Notes: generated by a model not told the origin, from the letters alone. DNA of 64,000 bases from Nitrosopumilus sp. (GCA_963662625.1 OY759726.1:1568001-1632000), one strand, 5' to 3'; positions 2,285 through 61,545 are shown, counted from the stretch's first letter. A program made the numbers and translations.

Positions 2285-3587
2285 CAGTAGCCGAAAATGT
2301 ACTGGCCGCCAGACGCCTGGTTGGGCCCCGCCCGCCCGCCATCCGCCCCGCCCGCGGCCATCCCCGACATGCGCCCCGGCATGATCGCCAGCCGGACCGG
2401 GGCGGTGTCGCGGCTCCCGTACCGCCCGGCAGACCACGCCGCCGACACCGTCCACGGGTTGCACGTCACCGGCGCCATGAAGAACAGGAACGTCCTGACG
2501 GAGGCGTCCGGGCTGGCGGTCCCGGGCCCAGCCTTCCCGGCGTCCCCGTGCCCTGGCCCTGTCCCCCGCCCCTTCCCGTACCCGTCTGGGACGTCGGCGG
2601 CGCGTACCGCCAGCCGGCGTCCGCGTTGGTGGCGTACGCCAGGTGCCACCTCCTGCGCGTCCCCCGGGTCCCGCCAGCCCCCGCCCTCCCCCTTCGGGAC
2701 GATCACCGGGGCGGACGGCTCCCTTGCCCTCCCGTACCGGGGCGTCGGGACGTGCGGGGAGACGGCGTCCCTCTCCCCCCGGCCGTGCTCCCCCGCGGCC
2801 CCCTTCACGCCGGCCGTCCGCGACGCGGGCATGACGAGCCCGTGGTCCGGCCCGGACAGCTCCGCGACTGCCCCTGCCGGGAAGAACCCCCTGCCCGGCA
2901 GGACCAGCCCGGGGCGGGCGCCCAACACCGCGCAGTCCCCCAGCAGTTCACGCACGGCCTCGGCCCCGGTTGGCCCCTTCTTGGGCCTGCACGTCGGGTC
3001 CTGCCCCGGCCCGACCGCCACCTTGGCGGCGGCGTGCCCCCCGGAGCGCGACGTACCGGACCTGTGCCTCGCGCGCACCAGCTGCCCCTCCAGGGCCGCG
3101 GGATCCCTGCCGCGCCTGGGCATCGGGCGGTCGCCGGTGGCCGCCACGCAGCGGATCCGCCCGGGGATCCCCTGCCGCCTGGCATCCAGCACGGTGGCGG
3201 CGAGGGCGCCGGAGCGCCGCTCCCGCATGGAGTCCTGGCCGCTGCACGCCCCTCGTATCCCGGAGGGCACCCGCGCCGACGACGGCATGCGGCCCCGCGC
3301 GTGGCGCACGGCGAGCGTCCCGGTGGCGCCAGCACGCGCACGGGGCCGGCCGTGCCGCACGCGGCGTTGTGCCGGCGGGAGAACCCGATGCCCGCCCTCC
3401 CCGGCAGCCCGGGCAACGTTTCAAGCGCCTTGCCGGCCACCCTGGGCCGGCGCCCCCGCGGTCCGTTTTGGTGAGTCATGGTGGGTTACGGGGGCGCCCG
3501 ACCCGTTGGTTTTTCTGCCCAAAGCGTTCCAGTATCGGGCCAAGACATGTCGGCCGGCGTCCAGCCGGGGTACATTTTCAACTACTA
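2285..3587 (-). mobile_element. Degenerate full-length ISH3/IS4-like element with TIRs and 5-bp GGGCC target duplication
   Basis: Ends CAGTAGCCGAAAATGTAC and GTACATTTTCAACTACTA; GGGCC on both flanks; remnant translation YGKGRGTGPGH...SVRTFLFFMA resembles the Y-x2-R-W-x-IE-x2-Y signature; homologous to 39025-39988. Confidence 0.85.
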
Positions 3588-3632
3588 GGGCCGCTTGCCG
3601 CCAGCGGATCGACCTGCACGCGCAGGGGGCAC

Positions 3633-4061
3633 CTAACCGCACGCGCCCATTGGGATCGACTTCCTGGCGCGCTCGATCAGCGCCAGGTCGCCCCTCGCGG
3701 CATCGGCGTCCCCCACCAGGCCCGCAAAGTACCCGTTCCCGGCGTCCAGCGCCTTCCGGATGTCGGACTCGTAGCATGACAGGGCCTTGTCCAGGAACCC
3801 GCAGTCGCCCCGGAGCGACTCCATCTGTCCCCCGTCGTGCAGGGCGCCGTGGATCCTTCCTATGGCCTCGTCGATCTTCGGCACCGTCCTAGCGGCTTCC
3901 TGGCTCAGCACCGACGCGAACATGGCGGCCGCGCCGCTCAGTTCGGGGCTCCGGCCCAGCGTCTTGAGCCTCTTCCTGTAGTGCCTCAGGGCCCTTATGG
4001 CTATCTCGTACCCGCCCTCGTGCTTGAGGAATATGCCGCCCAGCCAAACCCGTCCAGCCAA
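3633..4061 (-). CDS. Hypothetical protein
   Basis: 142-aa helical ORF (WLGGIFLKHEGGYEIAIRAL...), TTG start, AT-rich TATA-like stretch at about 4084-4096. Confidence 0.75.
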   Translation of the reverse strand: MAGRVWLGGIFLKHEGGYEIAIRALRHYRKRLKTLGRSPELSGAAAMFASVLSQEAARTVPKIDEAIGRIHGALHDGGQMESLRGDCGFLDKALSCYESDIRKALDAGNGYFAGLVGDADAARGDLALIERARKSIPMGACG

Positions 4062-61049: not shown

Positions 61050-61140
61050 CCGCGGACCTGGCCCGCATGCCCGGCGCATGAACGCGTTCCTCCCGCGCGC
61101 AGGCAGGCGCGCCACTCCGGTCCTGGGATGGCGGCGAGCG

Positions 61141-61545
61141 GCCCCGCCCCGGCCTTCTTCAATATCCGGCATGCGGAGCAGTAGCTCATGTCATGGTCCC
61201 TCCTGAGGCGCCTCGTGGTGCGCACCACGCCTGCAGGGCGCCTCCCGTGGGCGCCGGTGACCAGCCGTATCGTGGCGGCGGTCATGCAGGCGCGCGGCCT
61301 GCCCGTCCCCGCCGCCGCCGTTCCGGCCTCCAGGAACCCCGCCCACGGCCCCCGCACGTGCCTGGCGGTGATTCCCAGATCCCGCGCCACTTGGGATGAC
61401 GGCACGCCCTTCTCTCGCTGCCTGACCAGGTACTTCCGGATCCCACAGCAAGTCTTCCTGTCATGGCCTTCCGTGATCGGTACAGCCTAAAATAGTCGGC
61501 TACCGTCCTCTTGATCCGGCGCGGACCGACTTTCCGTACAATTGA
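61141..61545 (-). mobile_element. IS481-like left half
   Basis: Near-identical to 48050-48452. Confidence 0.85.

Follow-up and report, generated by a model that had tools for sequence, protein, structure and literature searches.

Decayed insertion sequences in a GC-rich Nitrosopumilus genome: one-directional A:T>G:C transitions as the probable trace of a lineage-wide drive

Transposase remnants in the window

The window analysed here is a stretch of 64,000 nucleotides from Nitrosopumilus sp. (GCA_963662625.1; OY759726.1, here G000:C1:1568001-1632000), and its source genome, G000, is a single contig of 1,858,698 bp with 63.4% guanine plus cytosine (GC). Between 2285 and 61545 the window carries decayed insertion sequence (IS) copies, referred to as ghosts, for which the original prediction, made from the sequence alone, had claimed that five unrelated IS families were inactivated by one-directional A:T>G:C transitions, either by a defence resembling fungal repeat-induced point mutation (RIP) or by a mutator state. 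Four transposase kinds could be typed by Pfam, namely DDE_Tnp_1 (ISH3/IS4-like), IS110, IS630 and rve (IS481/IS3-like), and one untyped repeat family comes in addition. Among the host genes of the window, Pfam identifies an archaeal-type eRF1 (53092-54381, minus strand; eRF1_1/2/3) with GC at codon positions 1, 2 and 3 (GC1, GC2, GC3) of 0.60, 0.39 and 0.95, and the dihydroxy-acid dehydratase gene ilvD (45667-47373, minus strand; GC3 0.93). Both serve as host comparators.

Typing was performed on the least-mutated copies in the genome and not on the window ghosts. The least-mutated IS110 copy (d1194276, GC 0.63) matches DEDD_Tnp_IS110 (98 bits) and Transposase_20 (78 bits), the least-mutated IS630 copy (L038) DDE_3 (53 bits) and HTH_33, and the least-mutated ISH3-type copy (L045) DDE_Tnp_1 (31.9 bits). 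The rve family (L040) matches rve at 46.3 bits, and its label IS481/IS3-like covers both groups. The name ISH3, in preference to another IS4-like group, goes back to a YRKRW..E motif given in the original prediction and is putative; Pfam supports it at the DDE_Tnp_1 level. No Pfam family was matched by the ISH3-type ghost frame 2297-3892 (plus strand), by frame 28367-29842 (minus strand) overlapping the IS110 fragment, by the IS630 ghost frames 42574-43707, 43828-44511 and 43844-44533 (all minus strand), or by two frames of a fuller copy (L039) of the unclassified family.

Each ghost was compared with its most AT-rich homologue in the genome, and counts are given below as sites with G/C in the window and A/T in the partner versus the reverse, followed by transversions. 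The ISH3-type family, which has 16 long copies genome-wide, is represented by a ghost at 2266-3599 (minus strand, GC 0.76; 122 vs 24, 76 transversions against 1645690), a truncated subfamily-B ghost at 14721-15767 (minus strand, GC 0.785; 83 vs 7, 22 transversions against 580674), lightly mutated subfamily-B fragments at 39608-40452 (97.4% identity to 581323-581708; 8 vs 0, 2 transversions) and a fragment at 42080-42467 (15 vs 8, 28 transversions against 288594). An IS110 ghost fragment lies at 28452-29057 (plus strand, GC 0.78; 85 vs 1, 19 transversions against 1195095), with 81.5% DNA identity to the least-mutated copy. Two IS630 (DDE_3 and HTH_33) ghosts occupy 42570-44691 (67 vs 26, 42 transversions against 347478). 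An rve ghost at 47418-48453 (minus strand; 84 vs 17, 20 transversions against 1674241) is accompanied by a lightly mutated fragment of the same family at 61109-61545 (12 vs 5, 1 transversion against 30138-30485), and the unclassified repeat family is found at 38186-39413 (40 vs 8, 14 transversions against 1359934).

The decay is also visible in the encoded motifs, where the strings quoted in the original prediction and the ancestral forms that it had inferred were almost all recovered. In the IS110 ghost, the open reading frame (ORF) 28236-28973 (plus strand) reads AGPCPAACRPG in place of AGLCPVVYQSG, which the least-mutated copy retains together with IGIDIGK. The IS630 ghost frames contain 'HFPPHAPEPDGAGVQR' (42574-43827, minus strand) and PEPDATGG (43838-44605, plus strand), and a less-mutated genome copy reads TPELNAMEEYW. 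Frame 47400-48476 (minus strand) of the rve ghost holds WHAGWH, PGNG and TDGKAGG, where a less-mutated copy has WHVDWH, SDNG and TNGKIERF. For ISH3, the ancestral motif YRKRWGIETGYRDAEK is present in a less-mutated copy, and the quoted ghost string came close without being identical: the transposase frame 2110-3420 (minus strand), which is still open, reads YGKGRGTGPGHGDAGK.

Direction of change in the ghosts

The four typed kinds and the untyped family differ from less-mutated genome copies mainly by one-directional A:T>G:C transitions, as had been proposed. In a 58-bp comparison taken from the original prediction, 39063-39120 (within the unclassified ghost) agrees with 3492-3549, read as its reverse complement, at 51 of 58 positions, and all seven differences are transitions. 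The outgroup copy at 56.2 kb, a short ISH3-end fragment aligned at 56179-56307, matches at 56 of 58 and polarises all seven as A>G or T>C, six of them in the 3492 copy and one (A>G) in the 39063 copy.

The same polarity was found over longer copies. For the ISH3-like family, the seven-copy subfamily A served as outgroup, and sites were scored where A and intact B agree. The ghost at 14721-15757 carries 31 A>G and 33 T>C against 1 G>A and 3 C>T, with 12 transversions (911 sites), and copy c1427592 carries 34 and 37 against 2 and 2, with 6 transversions (337 A/T and 825 G/C sites). The 2266-3599 ghost gave 45 A>G and 46 T>C against 4 and 6. Compared with the least-mutated IS110 copy, d17305 shows 199 A:T>G:C changes, 2 reverse changes and 9 transversions, and the other IS110 copies form a series of +45, +89, +188 and +199 A:T>G:C changes with 0-16 transversions. 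Of the 708 repeat pairs across the genome that have at least 20 transitions, 208 are asymmetric (p<1e-4).

Transposases of relatives confirm which state is ancestral. Outgroup IS110 transposases from genomes G016, G001 and G008 (51-65% identical) carry the least-mutated amino-acid state at 31 of 39 positions for d719 and at 64 of 74 for d476; the remainder are ties or neither, and in no case does the outgroup carry the derived state. The direction is therefore A:T>G:C, since external transposases share the d1194 state and never the derived one. Within the relatives, IS110 pairs are symmetric, with 47 vs 36 transitions and 19 transversions in G008 and 10 vs 12 transitions and 4 transversions in G016 (2 pairs). 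Among near-identical young copies of G000, the private changes comprise 16 A:T>G:C, 8 reverse and 7 transversions. The A:T>G:C drive is still running.

Two further claims of the original prediction are borne out: both strands are hit about equally, and new stop codons are rare. Stop-free frames are even longer in mutated copies (e.g. 474 aa vs 440-446 aa), and long frames rich in G, A, R and P persist because no stop codon can arise through A>G or T>C.

The ghost pattern is not an assembly artefact, as parts of a ghost copy are matched by contigs of three public runs. These runs come from one study and essentially from one strain, and one of them may equal the source sample. Host genes show 0-2 differences and the mutated copy at window 1963-2349 and 3043-3329 shows 0 differences to these contigs, which end at IS copies, such that full ghost copies are not spanned independently.

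Host genes and genome composition

Single-copy host genes moved in the same direction as the ghosts. In 74 single-copy orthologue triplets (G000, a same-genus sister and the outgroup G005; 20,239 codons), the G000 lineage accumulated 2570 A>G, 2340 T>C, 811 A>C and 450 T>G changes at codon position 3, against 30 G>A and 30 C>T. Changes from A/T to G/C (W>S) at this position amount to 4,910 transitions and 1,261 transversions, those from G/C to A/T (S>W) to 60 transitions and 40 transversions. W>S transitions also prevail at position 2 (887+248, i.e. 1,135, vs 34+50, i.e. 84) and position 1 (766+301, i.e. 1,067, vs 99+15, i.e. 114). The sister lineage is balanced or AT-ward (position 2: 263 vs 284; position 3: 158 vs 1432).

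Per site, we estimate from the triplet counts a W>S:S>W transition ratio of about 60:1 at host position 3. IS ghosts show about 22:1 when 15 ancestor-descendant pairs, which are not independent, are pooled, and 43-167:1 in single copies. The direction is the same, and the transition bias agrees within about 2-3 fold; the ghosts have relatively fewer transversions and show doublets that host data did not reveal. The shared direction speaks against the repeat-directed, RIP-like option of the original prediction, as single-copy host genes shifted at all codon positions with a similar bias; targeting is not needed to explain the direction, because genes outside the repeats share it, a comparison that had itself been suggested as the way to refute targeting.

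The alternative offered alongside, a genome-wide GC-ward bias or mutator state that also explains the high GC of the lineage, is supported by the 74 triplets and by the contrast between 0.634 GC in G000 and about 40% in the genus. Same-genus relatives have 0.38-0.41 GC at sampled loci, and their eRF1 genes have a GC3 of 0.40 and 0.34 at 80-82% amino-acid identity, compared with 0.95 in G000. Crude codon values for G000 are GC1 0.61, GC2 0.46 and GC3 0.865 (1,176 candidate ORFs), and host ORFs of the window have a GC3 of 0.83-0.97, mostly 0.84-0.95. At four-fold sites of eRF1, 21 ancestral A became C (11) or G (10), a small and saturated sample. Active IS110 and ISH3 transposases, with a GC3 of 0.91, resemble host genes, and the ghosts are changed at codon positions 1 and 2, the ones that still hold A/T.

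Along the genome, 10-kb bins reach about 0.66-0.70 GC at 0-300 kb and 1,560-1,858 kb and about 0.60-0.65 at 300-1,300 kb. Low-GC islands (0.43-0.55), e.g. at 20-40, 150, 700, 1,260-1,270, 1,490-1,530 and 1,660-1,690 kb, are probably recent acquisitions. Of the high-GC, non-repeat, phase-flat regions considered as possible single-copy ghosts, several have weak similarity to IS; others lack an assignment. A GC-rich, phase-flat region (634163-635290) adjoins an N6/N4 DNA methyltransferase match with two in-frame TAG codons at 635603-636544, a possible non-IS pseudogene. The host paralogue pair at 920.5/933.7 kb (12 vs 2) was considered as a case of ghost-type decay and set aside, being a local divergent block in a cupredoxin-like gene.

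A doublet signature in the ghosts

T>C and A>G changes alternate along the ghosts beyond chance (runs z = +3.3 to +5.6), because they come as pairs of the type 5'-T-N2-A > C-N2-G. Clustering in strand runs, of the kind that transcription or single-stranded DNA would leave, was rejected on account of this alternation. Doubles of the form T(N1-3)A hold 828 of 1,888 changes (about 44%), compared with 180 +/- 17.5 and a maximum of 239 in 200 context-preserving permutations. In a lightly mutated IS110 copy, two-ended changes are found at 11 of 50 TNNA sites and one-ended changes at 2, where about 0.4 doubles would be expected under independence. Across 21 non-IS110 pairs, T-N2-A sites are changed at both bases in 133 cases and at one base in 70 (a fraction of 0.66), while the 'both' fraction is 0.31 for T-N1-A, 0.36 for T-N3-A, about 0.25 for A..T and 0.06 for same-strand A..A and T..T.

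The changes have a sequence context. TCGA is hit at 67% of sites (50 both, 6 one), TCCA/TGGA at about 50% and TGCA at 25%. Single changes favour an A/T between G/C (0.34-0.46 mutated, against 0.10-0.19 beside A), and the 5' neighbour is G or C in 78% of cases. The hot contexts of the ghosts are accordingly S-A-S, TCGA and TCCA/TGGA.

We read the doublets as single events, because the private changes of near-identical young copies come in this form. In the seven ISH3-A copies (98.3-99.1% identical in the family alignment, 99.0-99.9% in local alignments), all six private A:T>G:C changes make up three doublets, and young copies of IS-X, a 1.29-kb DDE_Tnp_1 element, add AGCT>GGCC and TGTA>CGTG. 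Identical doublets turn up again in independent lineages, and differences in their vicinity that are diagnostic of a subfamily are left unchanged. Read as adenines of both strands, a doublet is dyad-symmetric, its two adenines being offset by about 3 bp in the 3' direction. In B-DNA, nucleotides 3'-staggered by about 3 bp face each other across the minor groove, and this geometry would fit an agent with two-fold symmetry that works on the duplex. Clustered A>G changes, which the original prediction had asked for, do therefore exist as doublets, although they are demonstrated in IS DNA alone. A literature search, which was not exhaustive and covered the sources in part, returned no report of the phenomenon or of the doublet signature. 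The doublet T-N2-A>C-N2-G is a mutational signature unmatched to a known process and new here.

Repair genes and the distribution of Vsr

The relatives of G000 considered here belong to one order and have genomes of 0.8-2.4 Mb, with one of 4.3 Mb. Repair genes were compared in five genomes (G000, G001, G002, G005 and G008; three of the four relatives are AT-rich). EndoV, NucS, MutS_V and EndoQ (TIGR00375) were found in none of the five. Ham1/ITPase, AAG, Ogt, UDG and HhH-GPD are present in G000 as in the relatives, and each genome has one CDA-type deaminase gene (PF00383 being the only deaminase family searched). The suggestion that loss of EndoMS/NucS or of hypoxanthine repair caused the bias is not upheld, as the absences are common to all five genomes: genes present or absent alike in the relatives cannot explain a shift specific to G000. 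The missing functions nevertheless set the stage for it.

Vsr (PF03852), by contrast, is specific to G000 within this set, with two genes in G000 and none in the four relatives. They score 70.7 and 66.3 bits (cut-off 27), and Vsr-1 also passes the NCBIfam vsr model (103.5 bits, cut-off 97.85); near Vsr-2, the NCBIfam scan covered one overlapping frame without the Vsr domain (L069:14094-14534) and gave no match. Vsr-1 (genome 1510893-1511294) closes a module of dcm, HNH endonuclease, an unknown ORF and Vsr at genome position 1508949-1511294 (L069:1949-4294), the dcm-superfamily C5 methyltransferase gene lying about 1 kb upstream of Vsr-1 with the HNH gene between them. This module is located in an island of 0.52-0.67 GC directly beside an IS110 ghost, and the second homologue follows at 1520947-1521516, 10 kb from Vsr-1. 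C5 methyltransferase matches number seven in G000 (about 5 loci) and four in G001, with none in G002, G005 or G008. N6/N4 and Eco57I-type methyltransferases were dismissed as a lineage-specific cue, being common in all relatives.

In a sample of 31 genomes of the order, including G000, Vsr was found in three: G000 (GC 0.634, whole genome), G014 (0.615 and 0.587 in two 20-kb samples) and G027 (0.603 and 0.552, likewise). It was not found in G008 (0.55-0.59) or G003 (0.53), in G005, G012, G015 and G026 (0.33-0.43; all at sampled loci), or in 15 further genomes at about 0.45 or lower (by an SSSS-count proxy). The three Vsr-positive genomes are all among the five GC-richest of the 31, which has a chance of 10/4495 if genomes are independent; they are not fully so, and the GC samples are small. 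Across the small archaeal genomes of this one family or order, GC varies from about 0.29 to 0.63. Excerpts of one report (PMC2715241) describe Vsr as targeting T:G mismatches in the Dcm context and as mutagenic in E. coli when overexpressed, and repair in the very-short-patch (VSP) mode as resolving T:G to C:G in a short patch. As the sole lineage-specific candidate found, Vsr may be regarded, on gene content, as a lead to the GC-ward cause and not as its proof.

Interpretation

We posit that the ghosts record, as neutral fossils, an A:T>G:C transition drive that affects the whole lineage and is still running, and that they are not the targets of a defence; we give this reading a probability of roughly 0.6. 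We take the ghosts as neutral because host and active IS genes have a GC3 of about 0.9 while relatives stand at about 40% GC. The lineage would have moved from the approximately 40% GC of its genus-mates to 63%, so that the synonymous sites of host and active IS genes are already at about 90% G/C. Once an IS copy is no longer selected, its A/T-rich codon positions 1 and 2 would be released and slide GC-ward. The cause may be a biased mutational or mismatch-processing activity on duplex DNA.

A candidate for this activity is a horizontally acquired Dcm-Vsr system with T:G>C:G repair in a background where the five tested genomes lack MutS and NucS. Uncorrected T:G replication errors, as well as T:G mismatches in IS heteroduplexes, would then always be resolved to C:G. 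Without strand-directed mismatch repair, Vsr would fix G-opposite-T errors as A:T>G:C, and errors with T opposite G would be erased by it, as would deaminated 5-methylcytosine. The outcome might be a transition-only, GC-ward bias with hot spots of sequence context.

Several observations weigh against this interpretation. The ratio of W>S transitions to transversions is 3.4-6:1 in host genes and about 10-66:1 in ghosts. A search by tblastn of 62 relatives' ORFs without an intact G000 orthologue yielded no usable single-copy pseudogenes; the candidates were mostly spurious antisense frames, and the one plausible case (792887-793657, 45% identity, 2 stops) is too diverged. The doublets, whose mechanism the drive leaves without an explanation, were not seen in host DNA: at positions 1 and 2 of the host orthologues, T..A pairs at distance 3 changed at both bases 26 times and at one base 374 times (0.07), like other pair types, and 42 non-IS paralogue pairs (3,373 transitions) gave 43 concordant and 30 discordant cases at this distance, compared with 254 and 1 in IS pairs. 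Nor do genome-wide k-mers mirror the IS preference, TCGA being the least depleted TSSA tetramer and TGCA the most; the TNNA/CNNG ratios relative to the relatives correlate in the wrong direction (Spearman +0.57, p = 0.085), a measure confounded by codon structure. Selection against two adjacent radical replacements, or synonymous saturation, could hide doublets in genes.

The accumulation of changes among copies is likewise hard to fit to one general process, as it is not clock-like. Of the 45 changes in c1644321, 44 lie within those of c1427592, and the IS110 copies are nested as well (d719 within d476 within d17305). Nested series carry 0-4 transversions (e.g. 44 transitions and 0 transversions between d728 and d1194). 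Two loci hold a 100% identical IS110 copy (1,423 bp) that already has 45 changes, including a D>G replacement in the catalytic motif. Four terminal branches of the IS110 tree have a ratio of A:T>G:C changes to all others of 0.25-0.55 (20 vs 52 for d1699627), and internal branches reach at least about 26:1, a comparison confounded by homoplasy at hot spots. Conversion in large mosaic blocks was rejected as the source of the nested series, derived sites forming short runs only.

The Vsr proposal has weak points of its own. The region of Vsr-1 has 0.52-0.54 GC, a low value that would fit recent acquisition of the gene. G008 and G003 have a fairly high GC with no Vsr found, and the correlation between Vsr and GC, seen in three genomes, could run in the reverse direction. 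Textbook VSP repair by itself also does not obviously yield T..A doublets. There is possible room for an IS-specific or repeat-dependent component, most plausibly GC-biased short-patch conversion between copies.

Going further, one might speculate that a two-fold symmetric activity on duplex DNA converts both adenines of T-N2-A to guanines at once, with a preference for unselected or repeated DNA, for which a dimeric adenine deaminase or bistranded processing by dcm-HNH-Vsr would be candidates, and more broadly that acquisition of Vsr in the absence of MutS and NucS drives rapid GC jumps, seen three times independently in the order. We offer this extension tentatively and consider it rather doubtful as a whole.

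A repeat-dependent process is one rival reading. If T:G and A:C mismatches in heteroduplexes of diverged IS copies were resolved to G:C by GC-biased very-short-patch conversion, over a few bases at a time, G/C alleles would spread through a family and A/T alleles be erased, giving a RIP-like by-product restricted to repeats, possibly via Vsr, on top of the genome-wide drive. Shared changes do have odds ratios of 22-430 within lineages; the independent B and C lineages share sites 2.4-fold over chance (odds ratio 5-9; e.g. an overlap of 44 where 18 are expected), and incompatible sharing patterns indicate homoplasy or recombination. Derived sites lie in short runs of 2-6 (runs z = -2.3 to -6.3), doublets of young active copies are already present in ghosts, and the genes for Vsr and Dcm are there. 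The unseen doublets and asymmetry in host paralogues or orthologues, as well as the non-clock-like accumulation, would also be in line with it. Conversion, however, cannot create the first G/C allele, and it does not explain why T..A pairs go together (0.66) and T..T or A..A pairs at equal spacing are depleted (0.06). Diagnostic subfamily differences 7-12 bp from a doublet were not co-converted, a TCGA>CCGG doublet in c780292 has no clean donor among 16 copies, and host genes show the same direction without repeats. We consider this reading unlikely.

A dedicated defence that edits adenines (A>I) in IS, repeated or foreign DNA, e.g. by a dimeric deaminase acting on double-stranded DNA, appears improbable to us. 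The pure transitions, with both strands hit equally, would be in line with it, and a two-fold enzyme across the minor groove fits the dyad-symmetric doublets, their 3' stagger of about 3 bp and the hot spots at TCGA (67%) and TCCA/TGGA (about 50%); doublets went undetected in host genes, and the catalytic residues of the transposases are destroyed. Set against this, the shift in the 74 single-copy host genes has the same direction and, per site, a bias of comparable size, active IS persist as 4-8 near-identical copies that are only lightly hit, and mutated copies were still duplicated or mobilised. A lineage-specific deaminase was not found in the five genomes, each of which has the one CDA-fold gene recovered with PF00383, and the papers found, as far as their available text goes, describe adenine editing of double-stranded DNA for engineered TadA variants only.

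That the GC-rich copies arrived separately from other hosts, or arose as artefacts of assembly or polishing in repeats, is very improbable: the ISH3 subfamilies A, B and C do differ by about 76-81 transversions, which probably predate the decay, and repeats are hard to polish, with public-run contigs breaking at IS copies, but the nested series are almost free of transversions, independent run contigs reproduce ghost parts exactly, outgroup IS110 copies of relatives have 40-53% GC and unmutated amino-acid states, and an artefact would not be unidirectional.

Other features of the window and genome

At three loci (718141-720840, 728463-731141 and 1194276-1196973), an IS110 copy sits directly against the end of IS-X, each time with an identical junction, a pattern that points to site-specific insertion of IS110 into this end. 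Two of these three IS110 copies are identical despite a mutated catalytic motif.

The window also encodes very long ORFs at 30953-37876, 58206-61049 and 61552-64000 (2,307, 947 and >816 aa) with diverged internal tandem repeats. They look like adhesin-type surface proteins and have many paralogues genome-wide at 65-83% identity, whose differences are transversion-rich and directionless. Inside ORF 25330-26496, a 125-bp segment is repeated at an offset of 87 bp with 97.6% identity (25471-25682), and a diverged, phase-flat and GC-rich paralogue fragment lies at genome position 159866-161000. Elsewhere, a 1,189-aa protein of G001 has an orthologue in G000 (genome 46735-49272) whose alignment, at 75-79% identity, is limited to residues 8-649 and 962-1188; what lies between them in G001 is possibly an intein or an insertion.

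Comparison with known systems

The origin of high GC in prokaryotes, be it mutation, biased repair or conversion, or selection, has long been debated, and the prevailing evidence is for AT-biased mutation. In bacteria, an excess of GC>AT changes has been described (PMC2936529), and the pattern of G000 is the opposite. Dozens of dead IS copies with surviving ancestors offer a direct, polarised readout of unselected change and make the case unusually well documented. Nearly all of this change runs from A:T to G:C, and the lineage stands more than 20 GC points above its genus-mates. The question of GC content thereby becomes approachable experimentally in one organism, with acquired T:G>C:G repair in a background without mismatch repair as a concrete candidate. 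For annotation, the decay explains many long ghost ORFs rich in G, A, R and P that have no Pfam match.

As in fungal RIP, the genes of multi-copy mobile elements are inactivated, and the elements are full of transitions that run in one direction and affect both strands. RIP, however, runs from C:G to T:A, whereas the changes here are A:T>G:C, are not confined to repeats, create no stop codons, arise without a sexual cycle and leave active copies coexisting with ghosts. ADAR causes A>G (and U>C) hypermutation, and diversity-generating retroelements make adenine-specific changes. The ghosts differ from both in that changes alternate without strand-specific runs, the 5' neighbour is G/C in 78%, and A becomes G only and not any base; an RNA or reverse-transcriptase step is not indicated, although reverse transcriptase genes were not searched for.

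Dcm/Vsr repair of E. coli has a counterpart here, known from its genes: a Vsr gene above the curated cut-off in a module with a C5 methyltransferase gene. In E. coli, VSP repair is restricted to Dcm sites and operates together with MutS/MutL, whereas MutS and NucS were not found in the five genomes compared here, the context appears loose (S-A-S, TSSA), and an effect on composition is something that we infer.

The pattern is like the genome-wide GC-biased substitution of other prokaryotes, through GC-ward mutation bias or GC-biased gene conversion, in that W>S far exceeds S>W at near-neutral sites, the bias is lineage-specific and pseudogenised DNA appears to follow the genomic equilibrium. 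What sets G000 apart is the extremity of the bias at host third positions and in single ghosts, the almost pure transitions in the latter, its rise within a genus otherwise at about 40% GC, and the addition of dyad-symmetric doublets. The phenomenon thus resembles RIP in its outcome but belongs with the genome-wide GC-biased regimes, of which it is an extreme case.

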